DNA of 64,000 bases from an uncultured delta proteobacterium (GCA_963695875.1 CAVOID010000009.1:96001-160000), one strand, 5' to 3'; shown: positions 19,996-57,771, counted from the first letter of the stretch. Numbers and translations are program-made. Notes: a model not told the origin generated them from the letters alone.

Positions 19996-20063
19996 GTAGC
20001 TTATACCTACCATTGCACTACTATTTTATCATCATTGCCTTACATCGATAAGCACACTAATCT
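19996..20063 (+). promoter_or_regulatory. Conserved activator-dependent promoter copy A (usp-usp)
   Basis: GTAG-N7-CTACCATT-N8-ATTTTATC-ATC-A, -35 TTGCCT, N17, -10 TAATCT. Confidence 0.8.
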
Positions 20064-20142
20064 GCGACCAGAAGATTATTCCAAGGCATTTCGCATGATA
20101 AAATATGTTCTGGAAAAATTACTTTAACTAAAGAAGATAATT

Positions 20143-20595
20143 ATGTTTGTCCCAAAACGTATTCTTGTTCCGACGGACTTTTCCAATTACGCATCATACG
20201 CGCTGAAGCATGCCATTGATATTGCCAAACAGTATCAAGCGGAGATACACCTGCTTCACGTGATTGATGAGAAAATACAGCAGTGTCTCGTCGATTACTG
20301 CCTCAGCGATGCCATAATGGAGCAAATTGCGAAGGAAAGTGTAAAGACGTCTACTGAAAAACTCCAGCAGGAGGCACTCCGCGTGACTGATGCCAATCCG
20401 GGCGTGGAGATTTCCTACAATGTAAGGCAGGGGGTCCCCTATGAGGAGATCATGAACGAGCAGGAGGAGAAAAAAATAGATTTGATTGTGATTGCCTCCC
20501 ACGGCAAGACGGGAAGCCTGAAACATCTCATGGGCAGTGTTGCCGAAAAGGTTTTAAACGGAGCCAAGTCTCAGGTTCTCCTGGTCAAAAGTTGA
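20143..20595 (+). CDS. Universal stress protein
   Basis: ILVPTDFS, DLIVIASHG and MGSVAEKV USP motifs. Confidence 0.95.
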   Translation: MFVPKRILVPTDFSNYASYALKHAIDIAKQYQAEIHLLHVIDEKIQQCLVDYCLSDAIMEQIAKESVKTSTEKLQQEALRVTDANPGVEISYNVRQGVPYEEIMNEQEEKKIDLIVIASHGKTGSLKHLMGSVAEKVLNGAKSQVLLVKS

Positions 20596-20657
20596 AGGAT
20601 ATTTTAATTTCAGGAAAATAAAGATAGGCGCATACAAAATAAAAAAAGGGAAACGTT

Positions 20658-21110
20658 ATGTTTGAGCCTAAAAATATTTTAGTGCCGACGGATTTTTCCG
20701 CCTATGCTGACAAGGCGCTGAGAATAGCTGTCGAGATCGCAAAAAAGTATAACGCAAAGATTTACCTTCTGCATGTCATCAGTGAAGTATTGTATGAGTG
20801 CGGTGTTGATTATTGTCTGAGTAACGCGGATTTGCTGGAGATAGAACAGGTGAGTATGAAAACTTCTACAGATAAACTGCAGGAAGAAGTTAAGAGAATT
20901 AAAGCCTCTTCTGAAGGGTTAGATATAATCTTCGATATAAAGAGGGGGCACCCTTATGAGACGATATTAAACGAACAGGATGACAAAAAGATAGATCTGA
21001 TTGTGATTGCATCACACGGAAGAACCGGGCTCATGAAGCATCTCATCGGCAGTGTTGCCGAAAGGGTTTTAAGGGGAGCCAAGTGTAATGTCCTATTGGT
21101 TAAAAGTTGA
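20658..21110 (+). CDS. Universal stress protein (tandem paralog)
   Basis: ILVPTDFS, DLIVIASHG, IGSVAERV; same length as its neighbour. Confidence 0.95.
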   Translation: MFEPKNILVPTDFSAYADKALRIAVEIAKKYNAKIYLLHVISEVLYECGVDYCLSNADLLEIEQVSMKTSTDKLQEEVKRIKASSEGLDIIFDIKRGHPYETILNEQDDKKIDLIVIASHGRTGLMKHLIGSVAERVLRGAKCNVLLVKS

Positions 21111-21122
21111 CAAGCAGTTTGG

Positions 21123-21247
21123 GGATCATATCCGATGAAGCTGCCGGCATATCGAGGATTCAGGGAGTCAAGGATTCAACGGAATGGTTCAAAGATTTGA
21201 ACCCTCGAATACTGGAATCCTTTTTGTAACTGAATGTGAGAAGAACC
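21123..21247. mobile_element. Degenerate MITE-like element with GGATTCA repeats
   Basis: Right 51 bp (21197-21247) closely matches 39758-39808; imperfect terminal inverted repeat GGATCATATC...GAGAAGAACC. Confidence 0.5.
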
Positions 21248-21281
21248 TAAATTAATCTAAACTAAGTAAGAGGAGGTAATC

Positions 21282-21740
21282 ATGAGCAAGAAAGTCATAG
21301 ATTTATTAAACGCTGCGCGATCAAGAGAACTTACCGCTATCCTGCAGTATATGAACCAGCATTACGAATTGGAAGATAAAGACTTTGGCAAGCTCGCAAA
21401 AAAAATGAAAGAAATTGCCATCCAGGAAATGAAACATGCTGAAGCACTGGCTGAAAGGATTCTGTTTTTGAAAGGGACCCCCAATTACAAGCCCGATGCG
21501 GAAGTAGTGAAGGGGCAGGATATTACGGCCATGCTGGTTACAGATACGAAGCTGGAAAACTATGCCATCAAAATGTACAATGAGGCCTCCGCGATCTGTG
21601 CCGCCGAGAATGACCAGATCTCCAAAAATCTCTTTGAAAAACTTCTGGGTGAAGAGGAAGACCATCTCAACTTCTTTGAGAATACCGGAGAGCACGTGGA
21701 AAAACTTGGTGCGGCTTACGTGGCAACCTTGGCTGATTAA
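21282..21740 (+). CDS. bfr: Bacterioferritin
   Basis: ELTAILQYM, EMKHAE (heme Met, ExxH) and EEEDH ferroxidase motifs. Confidence 0.9.
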   Translation: MSKKVIDLLNAARSRELTAILQYMNQHYELEDKDFGKLAKKMKEIAIQEMKHAEALAERILFLKGTPNYKPDAEVVKGQDITAMLVTDTKLENYAIKMYNEASAICAAENDQISKNLFEKLLGEEEDHLNFFENTGEHVEKLGAAYVATLAD

Positions 21741-21912: not shown

Positions 21913-23541
21913 ATGGAATTCAATGTCGTTATCGGCGGAGAGGCGGGACAGGGTGTTTTTTCTGTTGAACTGGAACTCACAGAAATCCTGTCAAAACTCA
22001 ATTATTATTTTTTCGCCACCAAGAACTACATGTCCAGGATCCGGGGCGGACACAACTTCCACATGGTCCGCATAGCCGAGCAGCCCGTCCATGCCCTGAG
22101 CGGCGGAAAGTGGGACATGGTCATCGCCCTCGACAATGAGACGGACAAGCGGCATAAACCGAACCTCCATGAAAAAGGCATCTATCTTTCCCGGGATCTG
22201 ACGAAAGAGGTTGAAAAAGAGGCCCGTGAAAAATTCAAGGACGTCAAAACCGCCAATTCGATACTGGTTGGTATTGTTCTTTCCGTCATCGGTGTAAGTC
22301 CCGAAAAAACGGCAGAGGCCGCCGAATCTGCAAACGCCCCATACCTGAAGAACGGCTTCGATCTCGCTTCCCGGTGGAAACTTGCAGGCGCCTTCCCTGT
22401 TTCACCCAGGGCGGGGGACCATTGTAAATTCGACGGAAATCAGGCTATCACCCTCGGTTCCCTCCTGGGCGGCTGTCAGTTCATGGCCGGTTACCCAATG
22501 ACGCCGGCTACTTCCATCATGCACTACTTCGCTGAGGCCGCCCAGGAGATGCCGGTACATTTTGAGCAGGCCGAGGATGAGATCTCGGCCATCAACATGG
22601 CCCTGGGTGCATCCTATGCTGGCGTCCGGTCGATGGCGGCCACCTCCGGCGGCGGTTTCGCGCTCATGCAGGAAGGGGTGTCACTGGCAGGCATGACGGA
22701 AACGCCTGTCGTCATCATCGTAGCCCAGCGGCCCGGCCCGGCCACAGGGCTTCCCACCCGGACAGAACAGGGGGATCTCAACTTTGTCCTCCATGCCGGC
22801 CACGGAGAATTCCCCCGGATTATTTTCGCCCCCGGCTCCATCGATGAAACCATCGCTCTCGCCCAAAAGAGCTTCGAACTGGCCGACCGTTATCAGATCC
22901 CTGTTTTTCTCATGACGGATCAGTATTTTGCCGACTCCGTCCATATTATCGAGGATGATATCACGACGGAAGCCCGGAGACGCGAATACAGCATCTTCGA
23001 CAATACCTACAAGAGGTACCGTCTGACGGAGAACGGGATTTCACCGTTAACTTTCCCCGGCCTTTCCGACGCGCTGGTCAAGCTAGATTCCGATGAGCAC
23101 GACGAAGAGGGGAAAATCACGGAGGACCTGAACCTGAGGATCAGGATGGTGGACAAACGCCTGAAGAAATTCGATCTCCTGCGGAAAGATGCCGTACCGC
23201 CCACATTATACGGTGACGCGAAAGCGGCGTCGATAATTCTGTGCTGGGGTTCCAACAAGCTCATTGTGCAAGAAGCCGTGGAAAGGCTTACAGGCGAGGG
23301 GATCAGGACCGGCGCTCTCCATTTCGGACAGGTTTACCCTCTGACGGCGGAAATGATCACACCCTACGGGCTGGAATCGAAGAAGCTTATTTGCGTGGAA
23401 AATAATGCGAGAGGCCAGTTCGCCGGTCTTTTGAAACGGGAATTGGGGCTTAACGTGGCTCATCCGGTGCTGAAATACGACGGTGAATGTTTCACCGTGG
23501 AAGAACTCTATCGGACATTGAAAGACTTAGTACAAAAATAG
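21913..23541 (+). CDS. 2-oxoacid:ferredoxin oxidoreductase alpha subunit (gamma-alpha fusion)
   Basis: GGEAGQG, SRIRGGHN, GYPMTPAT, EDEISA, QRPGPATGLPT. Confidence 0.93.
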   Translation: MEFNVVIGGEAGQGVFSVELELTEILSKLNYYFFATKNYMSRIRGGHNFHMVRIAEQPVHALSGGKWDMVIALDNETDKRHKPNLHEKGIYLSRDLTKEVEKEAREKFKDVKTANSILVGIVLSVIGVSPEKTAEAAESANAPYLKNGFDLASRWKLAGAFPVSPRAGDHCKFDGNQAITLGSLLGGCQFMAGYPMTPATSIMHYFAEAAQEMPVHFEQAEDEISAINMALGASYAGVRSMAATSGGGFALMQEGVSLAGMTETPVVIIVAQRPGPATGLPTRTEQGDLNFVLHAGHGEFPRIIFAPGSIDETIALAQKSFELADRYQIPVFLMTDQYFADSVHIIEDDITTEARRREYSIFDNTYKRYRLTENGISPLTFPGLSDALVKLDSDEHDEEGKITEDLNLRIRMVDKRLKKFDLLRKDAVPPTLYGDAKAASIILCWGSNKLIVQEAVERLTGEGIRTGALHFGQVYPLTAEMITPYGLESKKLICVENNARGQFAGLLKRELGLNVAHPVLKYDGECFTVEELYRTLKDLVQK

Positions 23542-23667
23542 AATCAGAGGGCTGTCCAAAGCTGGCGGGATGCTGGGGGTGGTCCTGTAGTCGTGAAAGT
23601 CCCTCTGAGATCGTCCGTTTGACTAAAGGGAGACTGAAAGGAATGCACTTCTCAGAGGAGTTGAAAC

Positions 23668-24494
23668 ATGATGGCAAGAACCGATACCGCCTGGTGTCCC
23701 GGCTGCGGCAATTTTCCCATCCGGGACGTTCTGGAAAAAGCCTTACAGGAACTCCCTGTTCCCAAGAAAGACATCGTCCTCACATCGGGTATCGGGCAGG
23801 CCGCCAAGATGCCCCATTACCTGGATGTGAATTTTTTCAACGGGCTCCACGGCCGCGTCCCTGCCGCTTGCCGTCGGGATCAAGCTGGCCAGGCCGGACC
23901 TCACTGTCATTACATACTCCGGTGACGGCTGCAACTACGGCGAAGGAGGAAATCATTTCATCCACACCATACGAAGGCGTTTGGATATCACGATATTGAC
24001 CTCCAATAACCAGGTCTACGGCCTGACCAAGGGGCAAAGCTCTCCCACGACTGACTTCTCCGTGAAGAATGACCTGGCCCCACAGGGAAATCAGAACATC
24101 CCCTTGAACCCTGTCGCCCTGGCCATCAGCCATGGGAGCCCCCTTCGTGGCCCGTGGTTTTGCCGGTGAAAGGGAGCACCTGAAGGAACTGATCAAGGAA
24201 GCCATCCTCTTCAAGGGGACAGCTCTCGTGGATATCCTTTCACCCTGTGTCACCTTCAACAAGATCGATACCTACCAGTGGTACAAAGAAAGGGCCTTCA
24301 AGCTGGAGCATCCGCTGACAGACCGTTATGAAGCACTGAGGATGGCCGATCTCTGGGGCGATAAGATCCCCATCGGAGTCATATACCGGGATGAAAAAAT
24401 GGCATTGCGGGAAGTGAAGAATATTTTCCGGGAGCAGTTAACGGAAGAGGATATTGCGTGCCAGCTCAAGATGAGATGTGTCATGATGAGATGA
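23668..24494 (+). CDS. 2-oxoacid:ferredoxin oxidoreductase beta subunit, two +1 frameshifts (~23857, ~24131)
   Basis: [36 protein letters not shown] and SPCVTFN motifs spread over three frames. Confidence 0.88.
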
Positions 24495-24576
24495 CAGCGT
24501 TTCCATCTACATATTCTATTTCGTCTGATCCGTTGGTTCAAATCCAATGCAAATCCGGTGTGATACCCTCCCTTAT

Positions 24577-24645
24577 GGTAGTTTTTACCTACCAATCAGC
24601 TTACAATTAATCACTGTTGTTTTAACCCCCTCCGTCACCTAGTGT
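24577..24645 (+). promoter_or_regulatory. Conserved activator-dependent promoter copy G (wrbA and possibly the downstream signalling genes)
   Basis: GGTAG-N7-CTACCAAT-N8-AATTAATC-ACT-G, -35 TTGTTT, N17, -10 TAGTGT. Confidence 0.7.
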
Positions 24646-24741
24646 TTTAAATCAGTATACACGAATGAAGGTGTATGCCGTCAATATCAGAAATGATTTC
24701 AACACGGAAAAATATATCACGCAATCGAGGGGAGGCATACC

Positions 24742-25359
24742 ATGAAGGTTCTGATTGTATACTATTCCATGTACGGCCATATTCACCGGATGGCGGAAGC
24801 CGTGGCGGAAGGTGCAAAGGGGGTTAAAGGTGCTGATGTTTCCATGTATCGTGTCCCCGAGACGCTCACCGAAGAAGCTCTGAAAAAAATGGGCGCCCTC
24901 GAGGCCCAGAAAAGTTTTGCCCATGTCCCTGTCTGCAAGGTTGACGATCTCGCTTCGGCGGACGCGATAATCTTCGGCACACCGACGCGATTCGGCAATA
25001 TGTGCGGGCAGATGCGCCAGTTCCTCGACGCGACCGGAGGCCTGTGGGTCAAAGGCGCCCTTGTCGGAAAGGTAGGAAGCGTCTTCGCAAGCAGCGCAAC
25101 CCAGCACGGCGGCCAGGAATCCACGATTCTCACTTTCCACACCTTTTTACTGCATCAAGGCATGATCATTGCCGGCCTGCCCTATGCCTTTGAAGGACAA
25201 ATGCGCATCGACGAGATCACGGGCGGTTCCCCATACGGGGCATCCACGATTGCCGGGACCAAAGGCGACCGCATGCCCAGCGAAAACGAACTGAATGCAG
25301 CCCGGTTCCAGGGCAAATTCGTGGCGGAGATCGCGGCGAAACTTTCCCGTCAGGCGTAG
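24742..25359 (+). CDS. wrbA: NAD(P)H:quinone oxidoreductase WrbA
   Basis: [31 protein letters not shown]. Confidence 0.96.
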
Positions 25360-25374
25360 AGGAATAAAGGAGGG

Positions 25375-25596
25375 ATGGAAATGGATCACTCCTCAGTAGA
25401 TGAGGCATGGCAAAGATTACAGGCCCGCATCGAGCAACTGCTTCATCCCATGTTCAGAATTATTCTGATCCTCGACGTCTTTGAGCATGCCTATTACATC
25501 GATTACAAAAATGACCGGGCTAAATTTGTCGATGCGTTCTGGAACATCATAAACTGGAGCAAAGCAGGCAAGAGGCTGGAAGAGTTATTGAGCTGA
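25375..25596 (+). pseudogene. C-terminal fragment of Fe/Mn superoxide dismutase
   Basis: [29 protein letters not shown] matches the SOD DxWEHAYY region; N-terminal His ligands absent. Confidence 0.75.
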
Positions 25597-27753
25597 GTGG
25601 AGTATAACCATACCAATTTTCAGTTAGCAGCCATGACAAAAAAAGGGCCCAATATAAAGTATAGTTTTGATCTCCGTGGGCAGGCGGAAAAAAGAATACC
25701 CAATTCAATGGAGAGCTTAGCGGATATGTCTGTTCTCGAAGTCCGGAAGATTGTTCACGAGCTGCATGTTCACCAGATAGAGTTGGAAATGCAGAATGAT
25801 GAATTGCGTAAGACGCAGATGGAGCTTACGGAATCACACCACAAGTATACCGACCTTTACGATTTCGCCCCCGTCGGGTATTTCACATTAGACAAAAAGG
25901 GTCATATCATCGAGACGAATGTGACGGGTGCCGCCTTACTCGGCTCAGAAAAGCGATCTCTCATCAGACAGCCTTTCCATCGTTTTATCATGCCCGGCCA
26001 TTTCAGTATCTTCCAGTCCCATCTCCAGATGACCATTGAGATTAAAAGCAAGCAGACCTGCAAACTGAAGCTCACCCGGAAGGACGGGAGTATGTTCGAT
26101 GCGCTGATCGATACCACAGCGGTGACGGATGGCGGCGGTAATTTTGATCACTACCGGTCTTCGGTAACCGACATCACGGATATCACTAAGGCAGAGGAGT
26201 CTCTGATAAGAGCCCATGCAGAGATGGAGGAACGGGTCAGGGAGCGTACTGCTCAACTCGATATGGCAAACAGAGAAGCACAGAGACATTCCCAATTATT
26301 GGATTTGGCAAATGACGCTATCCTGATTTGCGACCTGTACGGCAACATAACGTACTGGAATAAAGGTGCGGAAAAACTTTACGGATGGTCGAGAAATGAG
26401 GCGATAGGGCAAAATATTCTAAGCCTGTTGCAGACGGAACCCTTGCTGAAATCGAAAGACATACGTGAGAGATTTTTCCGCGATGGTTATTGGGAAGGAG
26501 AACGTTTACACACAAAGAAGGACGGCAGAAAAGTAACGGTGCACAGCCGCTGGACATTACAGCGCGATGACAAGAAGAAGCCTGTTGCTTTCTCGGAGAT
26601 CAACCGCGATATTACCGAACTCAAGCGAAAGGAAAAAGAGCTTCACGACACAGCCTTATACTCCCGCAGACTTATTGAGGCAAGCCTCGACCCCCTCGTC
26701 ACAATCAGTGCCAGGGGCAAGATTATGGATGTGAACAAAGCTGCGGAAGATGCTACGGGTATACCGAGAAAGAGGCTCATCGGAAGCGATTTCTCCGATT
26801 ATTTCACCGACCCGGAGAAAGCAAGAGCAGGGTACGAAATGGTATTTTCGCAGGGCTTCGTTAAAGACTACCCTCTGGCCATCCGCCATACATCAGGCCG
26901 GACGATGGAGGTCCTGTATAACGCAACGACCTATAAAAATGATGCAGGAGAGGTGGTGGGCGTTTTTGCAGCCGCCCGCGACATTACCGAACTCAGAACA
27001 GCGCAGAAAGCCTTACAGGAATCCCATGACGATTTGGAGCGCCGGGTTGCGGAACGGACAGCCAAACTTGAAGCTGTAAACAAGGAACTGGAAAGCTTCA
27101 GCTACTCTGTCTCCCACGACCTCCGCGCCCCCCTGCGTGCCATTGACGGCTACGCACGCATGATCCTCAAAAAACAAGGGGATAAATTCGATGAAGACAC
27201 ACTCTCTAAATTTAATGTAATAAGATCGAGTGCGCATATGATGGGCCAGCTTATCGACGATCTCCTGACCTTTTCCCGCCTTGGCAGGAAGGAGATTTCC
27301 ATGTCGAAGCTGGACATGCATGCTCTTATCAATGATGTATGGAAAGAACTGCGCATCATCAATCCGGACAGGAACATGTTCCTGACTCTTCAAGGCCTTC
27401 CTTCCGGATATGGAGACAGGTCACTCGTTAAACAGGTGTATTCCAACCTTCTGGGGAACGCCGTCAAATTTACCAAATACCGGGAGGCCGCATATATCGA
27501 AGCAGGTGGATACACAGATGGAAACGAGGGCGTCTATTACATTAAAGACAATGGTGTCGGCTTCGACATGACGTACTATGATAAGTTGTTCGGCGTGTTT
27601 CAGCGTCTTCACAGCACCGATGATTTTGAGGGCACAGGTGTCGGCCTGGCGACTGTCCAGCGCATCATACGCAGGCATGGCGGGCGCGTATGGGCGGAAG
27701 GCGGAACGGACAGGGGCGCGACCTTCTATTTTACACTACGCGGAAAGGAGTAA
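25597..27753 (+). CDS. Cytoplasmic multi-PAS sensor histidine kinase
   Basis: ELHVHQIELEMQN coil, three PAS domains, SVSHDLRAPL H-box, NLLGNAVKF, DNGVGF, GTGVGLA; start may be ATG 25633. Confidence 0.93.
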   Translation: MEYNHTNFQLAAMTKKGPNIKYSFDLRGQAEKRIPNSMESLADMSVLEVRKIVHELHVHQIELEMQNDELRKTQMELTESHHKYTDLYDFAPVGYFTLDKKGHIIETNVTGAALLGSEKRSLIRQPFHRFIMPGHFSIFQSHLQMTIEIKSKQTCKLKLTRKDGSMFDALIDTTAVTDGGGNFDHYRSSVTDITDITKAEESLIRAHAEMEERVRERTAQLDMANREAQRHSQLLDLANDAILICDLYGNITYWNKGAEKLYGWSRNEAIGQNILSLLQTEPLLKSKDIRERFFRDGYWEGERLHTKKDGRKVTVHSRWTLQRDDKKKPVAFSEINRDITELKRKEKELHDTALYSRRLIEASLDPLVTISARGKIMDVNKAAEDATGIPRKRLIGSDFSDYFTDPEKARAGYEMVFSQGFVKDYPLAIRHTSGRTMEVLYNATTYKNDAGEVVGVFAAARDITELRTAQKALQESHDDLERRVAERTAKLEAVNKELESFSYSVSHDLRAPLRAIDGYARMILKKQGDKFDEDTLSKFNVIRSSAHMMGQLIDDLLTFSRLGRKEISMSKLDMHALINDVWKELRIINPDRNMFLTLQGLPSGYGDRSLVKQVYSNLLGNAVKFTKYREAAYIEAGGYTDGNEGVYYIKDNGVGFDMTYYDKLFGVFQRLHSTDDFEGTGVGLATVQRIIRRHGGRVWAEGGTDRGATFYFTLRGKE

Positions 27754-27762
27754 ATTGTTATT

Positions 27763-28206
27763 ATGGATGGAGTTGATATTCTCGTCATTGAAGATAATCG
27801 TCACGATGTTGAGATGATTCTCGAAACCATTAGTGAGCAAGATATCAGTGATACCGTTCATGTCATAAATGATGGTGCGGAAGCAATCGACTATTTTTTC
27901 GGCCCGCAAGGATGCGTCGAGGATGTTTCCTGTCATCTTCCCAAATTGATACTGCTCGATTTAAAACTTCCCAAAGTCAGCGGCCTTGAGGTTCTGAAAA
28001 GCATCAGATCCGATGAACGGACAAGGTATATCCCGACTGTCGTTTTTACTTCATCCAATGAAGCGCGGGACAGAATAGAAAGCTACCTGCTTGGGGCCAA
28101 CAGTTATATTGTAAAGCCCATGGATGCTGATAAATTTTCACGTTTTGTCGCGGAGATCGGATCATACTGGGTATTTATGAACAAATCAACCTACGACGGT
28201 GCATAG
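27763..28206 (+). CDS. Single-domain response regulator (Rcp1-like)
   Basis: LVIEDN, LILLDLKLPKVSG, GANSYIVKP. Confidence 0.93.
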   Translation: MDGVDILVIEDNRHDVEMILETISEQDISDTVHVINDGAEAIDYFFGPQGCVEDVSCHLPKLILLDLKLPKVSGLEVLKSIRSDERTRYIPTVVFTSSNEARDRIESYLLGANSYIVKPMDADKFSRFVAEIGSYWVFMNKSTYDGA

Positions 28207-28240
28207 ACTCGTACAATGAAGATTCAATTCCCGGGAGAGG

Positions 28241-29497
28241 ATGGAGGCTAATACCATGAGCAAGGAATTAAGAATATTGATTCTTGAGGATGTTCCTACG
28301 GATGCCGAATTGATGGAAGACGAACTTAAAGAGTCAGGCATGACCTTCATATCGAAGCGCGTCGCCGCAAGAACGGCTTTTATCAACGCGATTAATGGCT
28401 TTTGCCCGGACATTATCCTTTCAGATTATTCCCTGCCTTCATTTGACGGTCAGTCCGCATTAAAGATTGCCATGGAAAAATGCCCCGATACTCCCTTCAT
28501 TTTTGTTTCCGGGGCGTTGGGTGAAGAAATGGCGATTGAACTGCTCAAAAAGGGAGCAACCGATTATGTCTTGAAAAATAGGCTGTCACGCCTCGGGCCC
28601 GCCGTTTCCCGGGCACTGAACGAGGTCGAAGAACGGAACGAGCGAAAACGTTTTGAAGATGCACTGAAGGAATCGGAGGTAAGATACAGGACAATTTTTG
28701 AAAACACGGGAACGGCGACTATTATAATCGATGAAGATACAACGATCATTCTTGCCAACAGACAGTTTGAAAGACTGTCCGGTTTTTCAAGGTCTGAGAT
28801 TGAGGGCAAAAAAAACTGGACGGAATTTGTTATTAAAGATGATCTGGTAAAAGTAAACGACCTCAAGCAGCCATGGAGGAAGCATTTCAAACTGCCGTCG
28901 GACGGCTATGAATTCAGTCTTACCGGCAGGCAGGGGAACATACGAAATGTTCTGGCGAATATTGCGCTGATGCCGTCAACGAAGAGAACCGTCATGTCCC
29001 TTCTGGACATCACAGAACGGAAAGCGGCCGAGGAAGCCCTGAAAAAAAGGGAACAGGAACTTGAGTTAAAATCACAAAGTCTTCAGGAGGCCAATACGGC
29101 ATTAAAGGTCCTGCTGAAACATAGGGAAGAAGATAAGACCACTCTGGAAGAGCAAGTGCTGGCCAATGTTAAGAAGCTAGTTCTGCCCTACCTGGAAAAA
29201 TTAAAGAATCTTAAGTTAGATAAAAACCAGCTGGTCCATGTGGAGATCATAGAGGCGCATCTGAACGACATTATTTCACCATTTTTGCGCAATCTGACCT
29301 CGGCATACCTCAACCTGACACCCAGGGAAATTGAAGTAGCCAGCCTGGTCAAGGAAGGTAAGACGACAAAAGAAATAACCGAGCTGCTTAACATATCGGC
29401 AACAGCGGTGGACTTCCACAGAAAAAACCTTCGTTCAAAATTTGGCATAAAGAGCAAAAAAACAAATCTCAGGTCATATCTAACGTCCGTCTCTTGA
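28241..29497 (+). CDS. REC-PAS-LuxR/NarL-type HTH response regulator
   Basis: REC (LILED, LSDYSLP, YVLK), PAS, C-terminal LTPREIEVASLVKEGKTTKEITELLNISATAVDFHRKNLRSKFG. Confidence 0.92.
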   Translation: MEANTMSKELRILILEDVPTDAELMEDELKESGMTFISKRVAARTAFINAINGFCPDIILSDYSLPSFDGQSALKIAMEKCPDTPFIFVSGALGEEMAIELLKKGATDYVLKNRLSRLGPAVSRALNEVEERNERKRFEDALKESEVRYRTIFENTGTATIIIDEDTTIILANRQFERLSGFSRSEIEGKKNWTEFVIKDDLVKVNDLKQPWRKHFKLPSDGYEFSLTGRQGNIRNVLANIALMPSTKRTVMSLLDITERKAAEEALKKREQELELKSQSLQEANTALKVLLKHREEDKTTLEEQVLANVKKLVLPYLEKLKNLKLDKNQLVHVEIIEAHLNDIISPFLRNLTSAYLNLTPREIEVASLVKEGKTTKEITELLNISATAVDFHRKNLRSKFGIKSKKTNLRSYLTSVS

Positions 29498-29499
29498 TA

Positions 29500-29567
29500 G
29501 GAGATTATACCTACCATTGAGCTGTCATTTTATCCTCATTGCTCCGCCCCAATGAGCACACTAGTAT
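29500..29567 (+). promoter_or_regulatory. Conserved activator-dependent promoter copy B (pal)
   Basis: GGAG-N7-CTACCATT-N8-ATTTTATC-CTC-A, -35 TTGCTC, N17, -10 TAGTAT. Confidence 0.8.
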
Positions 29568-29767
29568 TCTAATTGGATAAATGAAATACATTACATATTA
29601 TGGCAGTATGCATTCAATCGCACACCATTCCGCTCAGCAGAAGGGGGATATTAGTGTGATTGATTGTTATTTTCAAAAATCTTAATCGACAAACGGGGAT
29701 TATGTTGCTTTAAGCATAGCGCTGGTGACTCCACCGAATAAGAAATGAAGGAAGAAAGGAGAGAAAA

Positions 29768-30385
29768 ATGAGAAGACAGAAATTTTTTATGACATTAGTT
29801 TTGGCAGCCATTCTTCTTGTATTTATTCTGCCCATAGGATGTGCAAAAAAAGCTGTCACGAAAGAGGAGGCCGTGGAAAAACAGGCGCCCGCACAACCTA
29901 CGGAAACAGCCAAGGAAAAGGAGCTGGAGGACGCTTTGGCTAAGGAGAAGGCAAAAGAAAGAGCTGCGGAAGAACAGTTGGCGAGGGAGCAGGCCGGTGA
30001 AGAGGCGGCTGCTGTGGAGGCGGCTGCTAATGCGGCAAGAGAAGCATCACAGTTTGAAGACATCCATTTTGCCTTTGACCGTTTTGACCTGAGGCCCGAT
30101 GCAAGAGAGATCTTAGATATGCACGCAAAGTGGCTTAAGGCACATCCCGAATATGTTGTGCGTATAGAGGGAAATTGTGATGACCGGGGTACGGTAGAAT
30201 ACAACCTCGCCCTTGGTGATAGACGGGCGAAGACTGCCATGACATACTTGGTCGATCTCGGCATTAATAAAGCAAGAATTAGCACGATAAGCTACGGGAA
30301 GGAGCAACCTCTTGATCCGGAGCATAATGAAGAGGCCTGGGCAAAGAATAGAAGAGATCATTTCGTCGTGACAAAGAAAAAATGA
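29768..30385 (+). CDS. pal: Peptidoglycan-associated lipoprotein
   Basis: Lipobox IGC, IHFAFD, EGNCDDRGTVEYNLALGDRRA, AWAKNRR. Confidence 0.93.
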   Translation: MRRQKFFMTLVLAAILLVFILPIGCAKKAVTKEEAVEKQAPAQPTETAKEKELEDALAKEKAKERAAEEQLAREQAGEEAAAVEAAANAAREASQFEDIHFAFDRFDLRPDAREILDMHAKWLKAHPEYVVRIEGNCDDRGTVEYNLALGDRRAKTAMTYLVDLGINKARISTISYGKEQPLDPEHNEEAWAKNRRDHFVVTKKK

Positions 30386-40191: not shown

Positions 40192-40239
40192 CGCAAAGAT
40201 CCCTTTTTATCTCGAATATATGTTTCAGTCTTCTTCTTA

Positions 40240-40884: not shown

Positions 40885-40905
40885 ATGTAAAAGGAATAAT
40901 GTTTG

Positions 40906-41998: not shown

Positions 41999-42001
41999 AG
42001 A

Positions 42002-42644: not shown

Positions 42645-42893
42645 ATGAGGTATGTGATCATATTCCTTATCGTGGCGCTGTTCTGCCAGGTGATTATCCA
42701 TTGGCCGATCCGGCAGGAACAGAGGGGCGCGGTCATATGGCGATCAGCGCAGGAAAAGAGGGACTTTTATAGACTGTTGCGGAAACACGGGCAGCATAAC
42801 CAGATATCCGCAATTTTTTACGACGGATCGAAGGCGTATTTTATCAGCGAGAACCGTCAGAAGTCCCTCTTTGAGTGGAAGGGAAACGGATAA
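42645..42893 (+). CDS. Small membrane-anchored hypothetical protein
   Basis: GGGGAG RBS, hydrophobic N-terminus MRYVIIFLIVALFC. Confidence 0.45.
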   Translation: MRYVIIFLIVALFCQVIIHWPIRQEQRGAVIWRSAQEKRDFYRLLRKHGQHNQISAIFYDGSKAYFISENRQKSLFEWKGNG

Positions 42894-42951
42894 TAGAGGG
42901 AAAGTGTTGCGCGCCGAATAAATATATCTTAATGCGTAAGGAATCACAACC

Positions 42952-43602: not shown

Positions 43603-43608
43603 ATCCTC

Positions 43609-44844
43609 ATGCGTTTCATTGCAGACCTTCACATCCATTCAAAATATTCAATAGCGACCAGCAAGGATTTATCACCCGAAAATATCTGGAAATGGGCACA
43701 ACTGAAAGGAATCACCGTTATTGGCACAGGGGATTTCACGCATCCTGTCTGGCTTAAGGAATTGAAAGAAAAAATCGAGCCGGCAGGCGATGGATTGTTT
43801 TGCCTGAAAAAAAAGTATCGGTCAAATGACATTCCTGATTCCTGCAATGCCGATGTCGTCTTTCTCCTTTCCGGAGAGATAAGCTGCATTTACAGTAAAA
43901 AGGGGAAGACGCGGAAAATTCACTCCATTATTTTCGTCCGAGACTTTGCGGATGCCGCAAAATTAAATACGGCTCTTTCGAAAATAGGAACCCTTACCGC
44001 TGACGGAAGACCCATACTGAGACTGGATGTGAAAGAACTCTTAAAGATAGCGCTGGATTCATCCGCAGACACCATGCTTGTACCCGCTCATGCATGGACT
44101 CCGCATTTCTCCGTATTCAGCTCAGGATCAGGATTTGATTCCCTTGAAGAATGCTTTGAGGAATTGACACCTAATGTTTACGCCGTGGAAACAGGGCTCT
44201 CCTCAGACCCGGCAATGAACTGGAGACTTTCATTTCTCAAAAGAATAACCCTGATATCCAATTCAGACGCCCATTCACCAAACAAGATAGGACGTGAGGC
44301 AAACATATTTGATACGGAAATCTCTTACAGTGCAATAATGGAAGCGATAAGAACAAGAAGAGGTTTTACAGGCACTATCGAATTCTTCCCGGAAGAAGGG
44401 AAATACTACTACGACGGCCACCGCTCATGCGGGATAAGCATGAATCCTAAAGAAACGGTAAAGCATAACTACCTCTGTCCCGTTTGCGGAAAGAAATTGA
44501 CTGTCGGCGTAATGCACAGGATCGAAATACTTGCAGACAGGAAAAGCGGTTTTAAACCAAAAGGCTCGCCTCTTTTCTATTCCATAATCCCTCTTGATGA
44601 GATTATTGCAGAAACCCTTGATCTTGGCGTAAAGAGCAGGACCGTGAAAAATGAATACATGAAATTGTTACAAAAACTCGGCAGTGAACTAAAAATTCTC
44701 ATGGACCTACCGCTGAAAGACATAGGGGATGCCGGCTCGCCTATTCTTCAGGCAGCAGTCTCGCGCATGCGAGCGGGAAAAGTAAATATCAACCCGGGTT
44801 TTGATGGAGAATACGGGAAAATAGAAATCTTTGACTCATCATAA
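43609..44844 (+). CDS. Endonuclease Q family protein (PHP domain)
   Basis: DLHIHSKYS, GTGDFTHP, PAHAWTP, ETGLSSD, SNSDAHS, CPVCGK, PGFDGEYG. Confidence 0.9.
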   Translation: MRFIADLHIHSKYSIATSKDLSPENIWKWAQLKGITVIGTGDFTHPVWLKELKEKIEPAGDGLFCLKKKYRSNDIPDSCNADVVFLLSGEISCIYSKKGKTRKIHSIIFVRDFADAAKLNTALSKIGTLTADGRPILRLDVKELLKIALDSSADTMLVPAHAWTPHFSVFSSGSGFDSLEECFEELTPNVYAVETGLSSDPAMNWRLSFLKRITLISNSDAHSPNKIGREANIFDTEISYSAIMEAIRTRRGFTGTIEFFPEEGKYYYDGHRSCGISMNPKETVKHNYLCPVCGKKLTVGVMHRIEILADRKSGFKPKGSPLFYSIIPLDEIIAETLDLGVKSRTVKNEYMKLLQKLGSELKILMDLPLKDIGDAGSPILQAAVSRMRAGKVNINPGFDGEYGKIEIFDSS

Positions 44845-44846
44845 CG

Positions 44847-44931
44847 CCCCCTTTTGTAAAGGGGGACTGAGGGGGATTTTTCAATTGGGGTTGAAATAAA
44901 ATCCCCCCTGCCCTCCTTCTAAAAAAGGGTG
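44847..44931. repeat. REP-like inverted repeat pair
   Basis: CCCCCTTTTGTAAAGGGGG-actga-GGGGGATTTT ... AAAATCCCCC-ctg-CCCTCCTTCTAAAAAAGGG. Confidence 0.6.
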
Positions 44932-44966
44932 ACAAACATATAGACAATGAATGAAGGGCACTTGAT

Positions 44967-45623
44967 ATGATTTTCTTTAAGAACAGGCTTGATGCAGGTG
45001 AAAGACTTTCTGCAAAAATTCATCTCAGTGAGGATGACAAAAATCCTATCGTTCTTGGTATCCCGAGAGGCGGGATTTCCGTCGGTTATCCTATCGCGCG
45101 GAAATTGAATTGTCTCTTAGAGCCTATAACGCTCCGCAAGCTGCCTATACCTCAAAATGATCAAATGGGCTTTGGGGCCGTCACCTTAGATAGACATGTA
45201 ATACTAAATAGAAGATTGATCGATTCTGGTTATGTATCAGAAAGAGAAATCGATGCAATCGTGGATGAAGTGTATGAGGAGGTCCTGCGCAGGGATAAAT
45301 TATACCGAGGGTCAAGACCTTTCCCGGAATTGAAAGATCGCTGCGTTGTCATAGTCGACGACGGGCTGGCTACAGGATTTACCATGCTTGCCGCCATACA
45401 GTTCGCAAAAGAGAAAGAAGCCGTGAAAATATTATGTGCAGTTCCTGTTGCCCATGAAAATTCATACCATATGGTCAAGCGGGAGGTCGATTCGATTATA
45501 TGCCTTCATATCGATAGAGGTTACTCCTTTGCAGTCGCATCTTTTTATCAAAGTTTTCCCGATATGCAGGATTCAGAGGTTATCTCGATATTAAAAAAGA
45601 TACATCATGAGGACGTGAAGTGA
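44967..45623 (+). CDS. Phosphoribosyltransferase family protein (second paralog)
   Basis: FKNRLDAG, GIPRGG, IVDDGLATGFTM, AVASFY. Confidence 0.92.
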   Translation: MIFFKNRLDAGERLSAKIHLSEDDKNPIVLGIPRGGISVGYPIARKLNCLLEPITLRKLPIPQNDQMGFGAVTLDRHVILNRRLIDSGYVSEREIDAIVDEVYEEVLRRDKLYRGSRPFPELKDRCVVIVDDGLATGFTMLAAIQFAKEKEAVKILCAVPVAHENSYHMVKREVDSIICLHIDRGYSFAVASFYQSFPDMQDSEVISILKKIHHEDVK

Positions 45624-49243: not shown

Positions 49244-50092
49244 TCAAGACTTAAGGTAGCTGTGGAGGCCGGGCAGGTAATTGACGCCAAGGTATGTGAA
49301 CAGCACACAGGCAAACCCGATGATGGCCATAAGGGCTATGCGTTTGCCCCGCCACTCTCTCACTAATCGTACATGCAGCATGGTCGCATAGACAAGCCAT
49401 GTAATCAATGACCATGTCTCTTTCGGATCCCAGCTCCAGTAAGACCCCCACGCATAATGGGCCCAGACAGACCCCGTTATAATCCCCAACGTCAAAAGAA
49501 CGAATCCAAGAGCCGTGCTCTGATAGATAAGTTCATCCAGAATGCTCCTTGCCGGCAGAAAGCGAAGCATTGACCCTGAGCGACTTCCCGCATGCCGATC
49601 AAGATTCTTTATAAAATACATGATACCAAGGCCGCATGCGATGGCAAAAGCGGCATATCCCATGAAACAGGTCATTACATGGCTTGTAAGCCAGTTACTC
49701 TGGAGCGCCGGGATCAGTGGCTGTATCCGGCTGTTTATATTGGGTGACAGGGAAGCAAAGGCCATGGCAAGAAATGCAACGGGAACAACAAATGTGCCCA
49801 GGCTTTTGTTTTTGATCCGCCACTCGAAAACCAGATAGAGCAGGACAATGGACCATGCAAAAAAAATCAAAGATTCATAGAAATTGGACAGGGGTGCATG
49901 ACCGATTCCCATTCTGTAGGATTCCATCCATCGAAGGATGAGTGCCACTGTCTGTGCCGTAAGACCAACAAAAGCTGTAATTGACGCCAGACGGCCCCAG
50001 ATATCCTCACCCCTGATCATCCTGATGAAGTATAAAACAAAGGCTGCAAGATAGATGAAGGTAACCCAGCTTAGAATGGCGGTATTGATCAT
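49244..50092 (-). CDS. ccsA: System II cytochrome c biogenesis protein CcsA/ResC
   Basis: WAHYAWGSYWSWDPKETW WWD motif, PALQSNWL, GLHSY. Confidence 0.95.
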   Translation of the reverse strand: MINTAILSWVTFIYLAAFVLYFIRMIRGEDIWGRLASITAFVGLTAQTVALILRWMESYRMGIGHAPLSNFYESLIFFAWSIVLLYLVFEWRIKNKSLGTFVVPVAFLAMAFASLSPNINSRIQPLIPALQSNWLTSHVMTCFMGYAAFAIACGLGIMYFIKNLDRHAGSRSGSMLRFLPARSILDELIYQSTALGFVLLTLGIITGSVWAHYAWGSYWSWDPKETWSLITWLVYATMLHVRLVREWRGKRIALMAIIGFACVLFTYLGVNYLPGLHSYLKS

Positions 50093-51533
50093 GAATTCGA
50101 CACTCCTGAATTTTGTATCTCTTCAATCAGGCTTGTTATTTCCCGTTCAAGACCGACCGGATCTTTATTGGTTTTACCGGCGATGCTGATTCGCGTGTTT
50201 GGTCCCTGTCTGTCGATCCTGATCCAAACCTGCCGGTGAGCATAAAAAAAGACAGTCATAAAACCGATAACAAGAAGGAAAGAACCGGCAATAACAACAG
50301 GGACACCCGGGTCCCGTGTTACCTGCAACCCCGTATAATATTTCGTTTGAATCATGGCAAGGGAAAAGACATACGGGGCAAAAATGCCCGGATTAAATAT
50401 CGGTACACGGTCTATGAGGCCGGGATTTTCCTCTATGATCTGTTCGATGTTCTGGAAAACCCATAATTGGAATTTTCCCTTTGCCGACTTTATATCGATC
50501 TTAACCGCGGGTCCGATCCGCATGAAGTTTTCCTCCATGCGGATAATCTTCGCTTTTCCATCCTTTCCCGGCAGATCAAACTCTGTACCAATACGAACCC
50601 TGATTACATGCGCCTTTTCGCGTCCTTTATCGGATGCCGATGACCGCATCACCCGATGGCATCGTACCGAAATTTGCCTGATAAAACCGGATTCCTTCAA
50701 TGGTTGCGGGATGATTGACAAATATCGGCCCCTGCTGAAGAATACTGCCGTTCCGTGAAAAAGTGAGGTCCGAACGATACATCTTTCGGCGTGCCATCCT
50801 CATAATAGTCTATGGAAAAGCGATCACAGCGTACGGCAAAATCAAGTTTTTTAAAACCCGTTTCTCCCTTGAGCTGAACTTTATCTGCCGAGTCCCCTTC
50901 AGCAATCTCAACGTAGGCATCAAAACCGAAGAGGAACCCGATGATTATGCCTGTCAGAATAATCAGAACACTGAAATGAACCAGATAGACCCCGAAATAC
51001 GAAAAATTTCCCTTTTCGCCGGTTATGAAGGTGCCTTCTTCCGTATCCTCTCTACATATACCTTTATATTTCTTCTTCAAAAGATTCTGGAGTCTCAGTG
51101 CCTCCTCATTGCGAGGTTTTTCGACGAGAATGACCCGGTCTGAAGGCAGGTCCCTGAAAATCTCTGTTTCATCGGGGACGGATGTTTTGCGGGAAAGCTT
51201 CCAGGAAGCAGGCAGTCGATTCGCCGAACAGACAATCAGATTAACGGAAAGGAGTATCATGAGGCTGACAAACCACGTGGAATGGAAAATATTGAACAAT
51301 TGCAGCTCCCGAAAAACGGCGACCATACCGGGACTGAGATGGCTGGTAAATATATCAGCCTCCTGCTGAGGTATTATGGTGCCTAAAATAGAGGCAATGG
51401 ATATGATGATTAACAGTACAATTGTCAGTTTTACGGAGGATAAAAGAGACCGGAAACTTATTTTTCGTCTTCGCATTACTGAATTCCTCGCCTGCATTTG
51501 CTCCCGTATTAATCTGTTGCCGTGTTCATTCAA
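50089..51533 (-). CDS. resB: Cytochrome c biogenesis protein ResB/Ccs1, two +1 frameshifts (~50781, ~50630)
   Basis: LSSVKLTI..GTIIPQ, FHSTWF, YLVHFSV, VNHP (shifted frame), YTGLQVTRDPG. Confidence 0.88.
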
Positions 51534-54947: not shown

Positions 54948-54962
54948 TTATCCTTGTCTCCT

Positions 54963-56330
54963 TTATTGTAATTTAAGTCTTTTCCATTTCCCCCGGTGAA
55001 ACCACCAGGCCATCATGATACCCTGGCAGATCATCGAGATAACCATGGCCGACCAGACGCCTGGTGCCCCGAATCCCATAAAAAGAGCGAGGAATGAAGC
55101 AAGGGGTAGCCGGATAAGCCACATCGATATGATAATCACCCACATGGTTCCCTTTGTATCCCCCGCCCCCTGGAGGCCGCCTCCCATTACCGTACTCAAG
55201 GCCAGAAAGGGTTCGGAAAGCATATTGAATCTTATATACCGCGTCGTTTCCGCAAGAACAGAGGGTTCTCCGGTCAGGATGGATGCGAAGCCCTCCGCCC
55301 AGATAAAAATGACAAGAGCCATGATACTGGTGATCCCTATGCCGGCGCCGGCAACCTTCCAGCCCATCTTTTCAGCCCTCTGCGGATCTCCGGCGCCCAG
55401 ATTCTGGCCCACAATCACGGATGCAGCCATATTCAGGGCAAAGGCGGGAAGGAAAATAATCGCCTCAATCCTCAAACCGTTAGCAATAGATGCGAGAGCG
55501 GTAATGCTCGATTCTTTCAGTCTCCCAAGAATATTAAACAGGATAATGCTAGCCATGTTCCACGCTATCTGTAGGAATGCAGCCGGCCAGCCAATGTTAA
55601 AAATGATTTTTATCGTCTCAAAAGACAGGGTTCTGGGCTTTGAATAAACAGTTCGCCACTTGTGACTAAACCCAAGAAAGATCAGATTCATGACTGTTCC
55701 CAATAAGGTGGCAATGGCTGTTGAAAATGCAATACCCACATAACCAAGTTTCGGAAAGGGGGGTATGCCGAAAACGAGAAAGAAATCGAGCGCTATATTT
55801 GTCAGGCTGAATACGAGCATTGTCGCAAGGGGCTTTTTTACCTCGGCATTTGCCCTGAAAATAGCATTTGAAATGACAAGCAGGTAATTAGGTCCCAGAG
55901 CGAACGCAAAAATCTTAAGAAAATTTTCTGCAATATCCCTGATTTGCGGCGGGAAGCCGGCCAGAAAAATAATACCGCGATAAAATAAAAAACAGACCGC
56001 CGTAAAGACAACAGAAATCAGGAATCCGAGAATAAGCGACTGCTTGGCAACATCAACGGCCCGTTGTGTTTCTCCTGCGCCGATAGCCCTCGAGATCACG
56101 GCCAGCGTGCCTATACTGATGGCATTTGCGACAATAATGACAAGGAAATATATCTGGGTGATGAAACCGACTGCCGCCTGGACATCCGGACTTATGAGGC
56201 CGGCAACGTAGACATCGGTGAAGCCGACAAAGAAACCGAAGATCATCATGATAAGCATCGGCCAGGAAAGTCCCCATATAGCGGTCCAGATACTTCCCGT
56301 GGTCACATCAATGATCCGGTCTTTGAACAT
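54963..56330 (-). CDS. MATE family efflux transporter
   Basis: LSWPM, ISRAIGAG, VGQNLGAG, GAGDTK; ~12 TM. Confidence 0.93.
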   Translation of the reverse strand: MFKDRIIDVTTGSIWTAIWGLSWPMLIMMIFGFFVGFTDVYVAGLISPDVQAAVGFITQIYFLVIIVANAISIGTLAVISRAIGAGETQRAVDVAKQSLILGFLISVVFTAVCFLFYRGIIFLAGFPPQIRDIAENFLKIFAFALGPNYLLVISNAIFRANAEVKKPLATMLVFSLTNIALDFFLVFGIPPFPKLGYVGIAFSTAIATLLGTVMNLIFLGFSHKWRTVYSKPRTLSFETIKIIFNIGWPAAFLQIAWNMASIILFNILGRLKESSITALASIANGLRIEAIIFLPAFALNMAASVIVGQNLGAGDPQRAEKMGWKVAGAGIGITSIMALVIFIWAEGFASILTGEPSVLAETTRYIRFNMLSEPFLALSTVMGGGLQGAGDTKGTMWVIIISMWLIRLPLASFLALFMGFGAPGVWSAMVISMICQGIMMAWWFHRGKWKRLKLQ

Positions 56331-56392
56331 TGCTGTTTATCTCATGCGTGAATGCATCTTTTCAATGAATATAAAAACACAGACAAAAGAAA

Positions 56393-56509
56393 TTGAAGCT
56401 CTCCGCAGTGAACTACGAGAATCTGCGATCCATAAGGAATAATAATGTTCCCCATTCACTCGCTTAGCCCGCAGCGAGCTACGGGGAATGTGCTCGCTGC
56501 CGGATTCAA
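56393..56509. mobile_element. MITE-like element copy 2 (117 bp)
   Basis: TTGAAGCTCTCCGCAG...GCTCGCTGCCGGATTCAA, homologous to 17341-17458. Confidence 0.75.
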
Positions 56510-56515
56510 TGAAAT

Positions 56516-57503
56516 CTATGCTAATGAATTAGTCAGATATTTCTGGAGGGTTTTATAGCTCTCAATATCAGTATCCACTAAAGAAGCTCCTATGTATGTC
56601 TCACTATTGGAACTGAGCACATATTGGGGCAGGCATTCAATCGTGACCGGCATTTTACTGTTGGGCAATGTGAAGGTAATCGAAATATTGCATGTCATTC
56701 CTGTCTTCCCCTGTCTCGAACTTATGAGCACCAGGTATTGAAATCTGTACGCCGCCGAGAGAGACGTCCAATACCAGCCCGGGTTGTAATGATGCTTTGT
56801 CACCATCTGATGTGCTGACTAAAGCAGAGAAAGAAACCTTTTTCCTCGGATAATGTCGTTTTTCCTCTTCTACCTTTTTTTTATAAAAATCGGGATACAG
56901 CTGTTTTGCGCAACCCGGACATATGCTGTGCGTAAAATTCAGGTCGGAATGATCTTTCAGATACGACTCAACCTGCATCCAGTATCCATCATCAGATCGT
57001 ATATTCTTGCAGTTGGCACAAATCGGAAGCAGCCCCCTTAACGTTTTTACATTTTCCAGCGCTTCTTTCAGCTCTTTTATCAATCTTTCCTTCTCTGTCA
57101 AATTGTGAAAACGCTCAATGGAATATTTTAAAGAACGCAAAAGCAGCATGCTGTTTATCTGATTTTTATTTAAATAGTCCTGAACACCACCCTGCAAGGC
57201 CTTTATAGCGACATTCTCATCATCAAGACCTGTCAAGACAATAATTGGCGTATTCTTTTCCTGCTCCACCATTTTTTTGACAGTGTCCAGGCCGTTGCTG
57301 TCGGGAAGCGACAAGTCCAGTAAAATTACATCCACTTTATTTTCAGCCAGATATTTCAAAGCATTTTCACATGTTTCCTTGTGTATTAATTCAAGATGGA
57401 CATCACCCGCATCTTTTATGACGTCCTCATAAATCATTCCTTTTATCAAAGCAGTATCGTTCTTATTATCCTCAACGAGAAGTATTTTTAATATTTTGGA
57501 CAT
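56516..57503 (-). CDS. Response regulator (REC + CxxC module + PilZ), +1 frameshift near 56710
   Basis: LLVED, LLDLSLPDS; LLPICANCKNIR..THSICPGC; PilZ EKRHYPR and DVSLGG. Confidence 0.8.
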
Positions 57504-57711
57504 GTTACTCTCCTTTTTGCGGCGTAACGACAATATCCAACTTCCGCCTCGAAATTTCGATCTGCAAACATATTATAATATTGTATACATAAAACATAAA
57601 ATAACTAACAATCGGGATTTTCCTGATTTATAGCTTCGAAAACCATTATAATGAACCTCTAAAATCCCGATTGATGAGAGTGCATAAACCGATATTGTTA
57701 TACATAAATTG

Positions 57712-57771
57712 TACCTACCATTATTCTTCCATTTAATCCCCATTGCGCTTCATCGATAAGGGCATTAAGCT
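57712..57771 (+). promoter_or_regulatory. Conserved activator-dependent promoter copy D (glgA-like)
   Basis: TACCTACCATT-N8-ATTTAATC-CCC-A, -35 TTGCGC, N17, -10 TAAGCT; left half-site degenerate. Confidence 0.78.

Follow-up and report, generated by a model that had tools for sequence, protein, structure and literature searches.

DosR (DevR) of Mycobacterium tuberculosis is a two-domain regulator, a receiver joined to a helix-turn-helix (HTH) domain, and is served by sensor kinases with haem-GAF domains. Its sites lie near -63.5 and -42.5, are common to divergent promoters and consist of 18-bp palindromes (Dev boxes) with GGGAC (PMC3177182). NarL of E. coli activates from about -43.5 (PMC10853779), and ComA of Bacillus subtilis acts through an inverted repeat upstream of the -35 element, with a less strictly conserved direct repeat, of 11-bp period, between the two; both halves contribute to activation (PMC4797271). 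Here we describe a box that recurs in seven promoters of a 64,000-nucleotide stretch of DNA (the window; all positions are counted along its whole length) from an uncultured delta proteobacterium (GCA_963695875.1, CAVOID010000009.1:96001-160000), whose genes have Syntrophales metagenome-assembled genomes as their closest named relatives. Judged from its geometry, intergenic placement, conservation, co-occurrence with an orthologue and covariation with a recognition helix, the box is probably the binding site of a LuxR-type regulator encoded in the same window (28241-29497), running a general/oxidative stress and carbon-storage regulon.

The regulator shares with DosR the NarL-family fold (Z 8.4, root-mean-square deviation 2.0, 63 residues), and the box, at about -67/-43, stands near the DosR positions, is likewise shared by divergent promoters and precedes usp-type targets (PMC3177182). 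In contrast, its half-site is CTACCATT and not GGGAC, the proximal site is a direct repeat instead of a second palindrome, the regulator combines a receiver, an optional PAS domain, a helical region and the HTH, and the kinase is of the HisKA type with PAS domains and no GAF match. The DosR-like regulon of the initial annotation stands as far as site positions and the HTH superfamily of the likely binder are concerned, whereas membership in the DosR type of regulon is not supported, since half-site, proximal repeat, domain layout, kinase class and targets differ.

ComA also belongs to the NarL family, with a tetrahelical HTH, and its sites show the same layout of inverted plus 11-bp direct repeats, although its half-site is TTGCGG with a 4-nt centre (7 nt in the box), it has neither PAS nor helical module, the HTH match is weak (E 0.017), and it governs quorum sensing in Bacillota and not stress genes in Syntrophales. 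NarL has the same fold (Z 8.9, root-mean-square deviation 1.8, 61 residues) and sets its specificity by equivalent helix positions, but on 7-2-7 palindromes and with Lys188, Val189 and Lys192 where Asp, Phe and Lys are found here (PMC10853779). In NCBIfam, the kinase core and the receiver of the regulator find their best matches, both well under cut-off, in LvrA/LvrB of Leptospira, a system that resembles ours in that output is controlled by a coiled coil placed after a receiver. LvrB, however, has as its output a kinase that targets an anti-sigma factor (PMC13269768), whereas here a receiver of this kind drives an HTH and, on contig C8 of the host, a HisKA_3 kinase. With the RpoS, SigB and EcfG responses the present system has csbD, ytxH and osmC as targets in common, but the promoters described here look RpoD-like, with an upstream activator site. 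The layout works like that of ComA, position and some targets are like those of DosR, and the system is a member of neither regulon.

Seven promoters with one box in fixed phase

The seven sites, each given from the left palindrome arm to the -10 element, are:

19992-20063, plus strand: site 1, inverted-pair centre 20003, direct repeats 20018-20025 and 20029-20036, -35 at 20035-20040, -10 at 20058-20063, upstream of usp-usp-bfr
24574-24645, plus strand: site 2, centre 24585, -10 at 24640-24645, upstream of wrbA
29496-29567, plus strand: site 3, centre 29507, upstream of pal (degP-pal in relatives)
39161-39232, plus strand: site 4, palindrome centre 39172 (common with site 5), -10 at 39227-39232, upstream of a secreted 127-aa protein and tauE
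39112-39183, minus strand: site 5, palindrome as in site 4 with direct repeats on the opposite side, -10 at 39117-39112, upstream of glgP
40237-40308, plus strand: site 6, centre 40248, upstream of a 59-aa protein and the PRT/PNPOx/hydrolase cluster
57700-57771, plus strand: site 7, degenerate left arm with three direct repeats retained, upstream of a glgA-like glycosyltransferase

All seven boxes reported in the initial annotation are present, and in 7/7 the TTG and, 17 bp past the -35 hexamer, the TAnnnT described for each were recovered. The literal consensus proposed for them is matched at 20004, 29508, 40249 and 57712 (4/7), while the copies at 24586, 39173 (plus) and 39171 (minus) are two to three letters off, and the upstream palindrome is general except at 57712, which lacks the left arm. 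A degenerate repeat does lie 22 bp downstream against the -35, but what had been taken for a second half-site is the last of two direct repeats (+11 and +22 bp) and not the arm of a second palindrome. The arm that a palindrome at +22 requires matches CTACCATT at only 2.05 of 8 letters, and this candidate was rejected.

Half-sites of the form CTACCATT make up an inverted pair with a 7-bp centre, and direct repeats follow in 11-bp phase down to the -35. Counted from the palindrome centre, the inverted arm occupies -11 to -4, CTACCATT itself +4 to +11, a direct repeat +15 to +22 and a weaker one +26 to +33, the last bases of which are the start of the -35, and the -10 lies at +55 to +60; the mean match to CTACCATT along these four elements is 6.3, 7.1, 5.7 and 4.3 of 8. 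Assuming that transcription starts 7 nt after the -10, these positions would put the inverted pair at about -67 and the direct repeats at about -43. The palindrome at 39172 is used in both directions, by two divergent promoters that have separate sets of direct repeats.

The final repeat covers the first two bases of the -35 hexamer, an overlap that would also suit a regulator that binds the box and represses by covering the edge of the -35. However, the core promoters are weak, with conserved letters limited to TTG and TA..T, almost every copy keeps the site in a single phase upstream of the -35, and ComA, NarL and DosR activate from such positions; repression seems very improbable. In a consensus promoter scan of 24400-30000 the predicted promoters were not listed, being too weak for its threshold.

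Copies in the host genome and in relatives

The host assembly comprises 2.86 Mb in 16 contigs and is 82.6% complete. When a matrix without the TTG and -10 columns was used to scan it, 19 sites scored above 34 bits and the next best 19.8, whereas the best score in 1.5 Mb of fourth-order Markov sequence was 9.5 bits; the sites are thus no chance occurrences. The 12 sites outside the window have TTG in 11 cases and TAnnnT at 17 bp in eight. A broader matrix, trained on 117 distinct sites from the host genome and relatives, yielded 25 host sites above 20 bits, none of them within a long open reading frame (ORF), against an ORF cover of 73% of the genome. TTG is present in 106 of the 117 sites. For TAnnnT, the spacing is 17 bp in 67 sites, 18 bp in ten and 16 bp in seven, and every other distance accounts for zero to four.

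When the 19 copies are compared, the repeats show identities of 0.87 and 0.70, the spacer between -35 and -10 one of 0.36, and the flanks 0.26-0.29, which is the background level; in eight orthologous glgP intergenic regions the box is kept while the flanks drift. Because the box is intergenic, with conserved repeats and flanks at background, we regard it as a selected protein-binding site and not a mobile repeat, as the initial annotation had argued. The spacer letters are partly common (0.36-0.6 identity), as a dispersed repeat or mobile promoter would have them, yet the difference between repeats and flanks and the retention of the box in drifting orthologous promoters speak against this. 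An alternative-sigma promoter fits poorly with a box in which 45 bp of repeats, inverted and direct, precede a core of ordinary 17-bp spacing, and only RpoD, RpoH-like, FliA-like and one ECF sigma were found in the host. An origin of either kind is the most improbable of the readings considered. The sequence data support a site for an activator-type protein that keeps a constant phase relative to a promoter of the sigma-70 type and marks the genes of a stress regulon. No description of the motif, the regulator or its family was found in a search of the openly accessible literature; the regulon is real and, as far as this search reaches, undescribed.

The regulator and its gene triad

The initial annotation left the regulator unnamed, although its gene lies inside the coordinates that it covered. 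The gene closes a triad:

25597-27753, plus strand: histidine kinase with three PAS domains, HisKA and HATPase, kept ahead of the regulator; putative phosphate donor
27763-28206, plus strand: single-domain receiver between kinase and regulator; putative phosphate sink or relay
28241-29497, plus strand: putative cognate activator of 418 aa, consisting of receiver, PAS, a family-specific helical module of about 100 aa and a LuxR/GerE HTH

Most orthologous loci of sufficient length retain the order kinase, single receiver and, last, regulator, with the PAS domain of the regulator optional among orthologues. The receiver of the activator has intact Asp/Ser/Lys phosphorylation residues, the HTH scores 51.3 bits with Pfam GerE (PF00196; cut-off 23.5) and by fold resembles VqmA, DegU, NarL, DosR and GerE (Z 8.3-9.2), and the recognition helix reads SATAVDFHRKN. 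ESM Atlas matches were to unnamed GerE clusters only (commonest phylum Thermodesulfobacteriota, best 0.89). The helical module (29000-29300) has no Pfam model and is predicted to form long helices plus a hairpin; a profile search with it matched only the ten family proteins of the host genome. For a dimerization-and-histidine-phosphotransfer (DHp) origin of this module, the fold matches to ERS1 and to the RetS/GacS DHp (Z 7.2-7.3) gave no support above helical-hairpin noise.

The transcript from site 2 and wrbA probably also carries the triad, and we infer that the triad is autoregulated through this site; in the scan of 24400-30000, the interval from wrbA to the kinase contained no predicted terminator on the plus strand. 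In one relative a site lies directly ahead of the receiver gene. Site 3 begins, with its left arm, inside the regulator's stop codon. A 73-aa ORF at 25420-25650, the front of which resembles 53-59-aa proteins behind sites in relatives, may be a further small gene in the interval that separates wrbA from the kinase.

Co-occurrence of site and orthologue

In a survey of 71 genomes of the order, with one mismatch allowed in the site pattern and orthologues defined by at least 75% HTH identity, the pattern was present in 11 genomes (reversed control, none) and the orthologue in 11 (next best, 69%), both being found in ten and neither in 59. The distribution of the pattern is patchy, presence and absence alternating within five families. 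In genome G426, with an orthologue and no match to the pattern, a single site with two mismatches follows the orthologue at a distance of 6 bp. None of 214 genomes of other orders matched a relaxed pattern, and none of 117 such genomes had an HTH match of at least 75%. A strict pattern run on 401 genomes of the phylum found only the host genome and 3 of 13 order genomes, and was too strict.

Among 80 loci collected with the regulator protein, the orthologue clade was defined by the helix signature [AT][AS]VDFHRK. A site was found at most 400 bp behind the stop codon in 22/38 genes of this clade vs 1/43 other paralogues, and anywhere in the locus in 34/38 vs 1/43.

Site letters follow the recognition helix

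In paralogues with other recognition helices, the stop codon is immediately followed by a site that keeps the geometry but has different letters. In a sequence-blind test, in which a palindrome matching at 6 of 8 positions and a TTG at +32 were sought behind the stop codon, 37/91 family genes passed compared with 16/1898 other gene ends; in a second set, 26/80 passed (21/73 once duplicates were removed), and in 17 of these 26 the position was exactly +9. The ends of the helices pair with the half-sites as follows:

DFHRKN: CTACCATT
DFHRNN: CTTATATT
EFHREN: CTGGTATT
EIHRYH: TAAAGGTT
NICRHR: GTAATATT

Mutual information between site and HTH in 35 representatives (rows L155 and L163 were lost at anchoring) peaks at T29, F33, K36 and N37, on one face of the recognition helix, and F33 and K36 align to Val189 and Lys192, with which NarL contacts bases (PMC10853779). 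With the rest of the HTH controlled for, the partial correlation between site and helix was 0.43 for the four chosen positions and 0.36 for the whole helix, as compared with a mean of 0.03 and a maximum of 0.31 for random quartets outside the helix. Phe33 goes with C at base 1 in 40/40 half-sites, and, outside the order, five paralogues from genome G118 with Lys36 have C at base 4 in 7/10 arms, against 3/64 in representatives without Lys. Two genes outside the order with the DFHRKN helix have, read by eye, CTRCC-type arms behind the stop codon without a TTG, and no genome-wide regulon was detected for them (0-1 matches at three mismatches vs 0-4 in controls).

That the letters of the site track the helix throughout the family is our strongest argument that the window protein reads the window box. 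An OmpR-type binder, of which the host genome has two, had been considered on account of the 11-bp repeats and was given lower priority in view of the link to the LuxR-type protein. Other family genes of the host are also followed by sites with this geometry, at C11:34367 (plus strand), C5 ~143400, C7 ~72200 and C8 ~73950. These paralogue-specific sites look local, because a sequence-blind scan of the host genome found only one non-CTACC site.

Target genes

The genes behind the seven sites are:

20143-21740, plus strand: usp, usp, bacterioferritin-like
24742-25359, plus strand: wrbA, NAD(P)H:quinone oxidoreductase
29768-30385, plus strand: pal lipoprotein
36456-38996, minus strand: glgP, alpha-glucan phosphorylase
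39268-40191, plus strand: secreted 127-aa protein and TauE/SafE-like membrane protein
40351-45623, plus strand: 59-aa protein, PRT, PNPOx-like, small ORFs, dienelactone-hydrolase-like, TIGR00375-like and second PRT (putative operon extent)
57873-59537, plus strand: glgA-like glycosyltransferase, below the TIGR02095 cut-off

Of the gene labels given earlier, usp, usp, bfr, wrbA, pal, glgP, TauE, PRT, PNPOx and glgA-like were retained, whereas "SOR-like" (39268) and "SAP" (40351) had no such Pfam match at E 0.1. Further host targets are pfpI, a small membrane protein with sodC, cfa, ytxH, hcp-hemerythrin, DUF1499, receiver proteins, a REC-PAS-HisKA_3 kinase with a NarL-type regulator, ABC and RND exporters, a glyoxalase-like cluster and a flavin reductase. 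In relatives, the first genes behind 109 sites near the regulator, a tally biased to the regulator's cluster, include wrbA (12 loci), glgP (11), the 127-aa protein (10), degP (9) and usp (6), while targets elsewhere include csbD twice, ytxH, pfpI, osmC, ferritins, desulfoferrodoxin, cydA, transketolase and PFK.

Members of sigma-factor general stress responses include pfpI, wrbA, bfr, sodC, cfa, usp and the glycogen genes. Hallmarks of such responses are present among the targets (ytxH, pfpI, sodC and cfa in the host; csbD twice, osmC and ytxH in relatives), and the list as a whole resembles a general stress regulon. Published regulons place csbD and ytxH under SigB (PMC7824861), csbD and osmC under EcfG (PMC7083833) and the CsbD-like yjbJ under sigma-S (PMC5437024). 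The same regulator and sites could instead serve a narrow oxygen/redox stimulon of the DosR dormancy kind, as would be expected from the handlers of oxygen, peroxide, NO or iron among the targets (sodC, bfr/ferritin, hcp, desulfoferrodoxin, osmC, cydA and wrbA), from the usp, PRT and PNPOx genes, from the DosR-like site positions and from the PAS domains of the kinase. This is unlikely, though less so than the other alternatives: csbD, ytxH, pfpI, cfa, degP and the glycogen genes are broader, as the SigB (csbD, ytxH), EcfG (csbD, osmC) and sigma-S (CsbD-like) memberships indicate. Read together, csbD, ytxH, pfpI, osmC, sodC, cfa, bfr and cydA point to general or oxidative stress and not to hypoxia.

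Several of the small target proteins have features of their own. The 127-aa protein (39268-39651), among the most constant targets, has no Pfam match and has conserved His, His and Cys residues; an extra His after the Cys occurs in five distant relatives and not here. A family of small membrane proteins of about 115 aa, also without Pfam match, is often the first gene behind the box (C4:114110, C5:57288, L113) and once stands ahead of sodC. In loci L001, L002, L003, L005 and L007 degP/htrA lies between the regulator-end site and pal, and it is absent from the corresponding interval of the window (29575-29768). Genes split into two or three ORFs, probably by assembly indels, were seen at 8723-11063, 21913-24494, 50089-51533 and in L086 hcp/gltX (ptsP-like, 2-oxoacid oxidoreductase beta, resB, hcp and glutamyl-tRNA synthetase).

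Sigma factors

Four sigma factors were found in the host genome (RpoD, RpoH-like, FliA-like and one ECF); SigB and EcfG were looked for through PF04542 and in this genome only. No second RpoD/RpoS-type sigma was found in the ten genomes with at least two sites, of which two are single-contig, three lack even an RpoD match and one is the incomplete host assembly. RpoS-like matches were obtained in G426, G420, G444 and G458. The first of these (locus L123) is the only orthologue holder with an RpoS-like sigma and has a single local site, ahead of usp; it is one case. Replacement of RpoS by the LuxR-type regulator is advanced as a hypothesis only.

Points against the assignment and the main rival binder

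Several observations weigh against the assignment of the box to this regulator or against its role in general stress. In the orthologue clade, 16/38 genes lack a site immediately after the stop codon, and 54/91 family genes fail the geometry test. Genome G456 (90% complete, 280 contigs) has one site and no orthologue, and the co-occurrence counts come from kin and are not independent. The four helix positions behind the partial correlation of 0.43 were picked from the same data on which they were scored, and a tree-based test of independent pairs, from which L199 had been removed as a GC-rich chance palindrome, gave one supported pair, too few to decide. The annotation of several targets does not suggest a stress function (ABC and RND exporters, PFK, transketolase and ETF). 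A second RpoD/RpoS-type sigma is also missing from 52/61 other genomes of the order; to be without RpoS is thus usual in the order, and this alone is no proof of replacement. Finally, a NarL-type response regulator encoded on contig C8 (219415-220065) has relatives of at least 77% identity in 8/11 genomes with the motif.

This protein is the main rival binder. Its own operon bears a site, and its partner kinase has the REC-PAS input of the window regulator at 76% identity. However, it was not found in G082 (seven sites, 100% complete), G418 (five sites) or G456, it has matches at 55-73% in 14 genomes without the pattern, no site of the expected geometry lies behind its gene, and it leaves the family-wide covariation unexplained; that it is the binder is very improbable, and the window regulator remains the preferred and well-supported candidate.

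Proposed mechanism

Under the assignment to the window regulator, the three-PAS kinase (25597) would phosphorylate the regulator's receiver, with the single receiver (27763) acting as a buffer; the signal is most likely a cytoplasmic energy, redox or oxygen cue sensed by the PAS domains. One regulator dimer would occupy the inverted pair near -67 and a second, in contact with the -35, the direct repeats at about -43; the two would jointly recruit RpoD polymerase to the weak TTGnnn-17-TAnnnT promoters in a ComA-like manner. The site ahead of wrbA would close a positive feedback loop on the triad.

The C8 HisKA_3 kinase (C8:220037-221542, equivalent to L087:1538-3043, minus strand) and the regulator (28241-29030) have a common REC-PAS front, 76% identical over 262 aa, the similarity ending sharply after PAS. 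One input module thus has two outputs, a HisKA_3 kinase and a LuxR HTH, and the operon of the C8 kinase bears a box. That this kinase both shares the input and is a target suggests a second regulatory layer on the same phosphate donor.

Most members of the family may activate just the gene behind them, whereas the regulator's clade would have acquired many sites, its regulon serving Syntrophales of soil, peat and sediment. More tentatively, with the balance tipping slightly against it, the large and uncharacterised sensor-LuxR family of Desulfobacterota could be seen as self-addressing switches, in which the gene ends in its own site of invariant geometry with letters set by three to four helix residues, and a receiver-fused member of which became master of a general stress response on the housekeeping sigma, in syntrophs without RpoS.

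Significance

Syntrophales (Syntrophus, Smithella and uncultured lineages of soil and peat) carry out key steps of methanogenic carbon turnover, and to our knowledge little is known of how they survive oxygen, drying or starvation. The regulator, the kinase, the site and the 25 promoters identified here are open to tests in a reporter host that need no culture of the organism, and the analysis links many small proteins without an assigned role to stress survival. The link between helix and site permits target prediction for the paralogues, at least one of which is present in 57/71 genomes of the order, and offers orthogonal activator-promoter pairs. If the proposed reading is true, the inverted-plus-direct-repeat mode of ComA would extend to a second, distant family, the sensor-LuxR regulators would provide a natural, readable recognition code, and in these organisms a stress response would be run by an activator on the housekeeping sigma and not by an alternative sigma factor.

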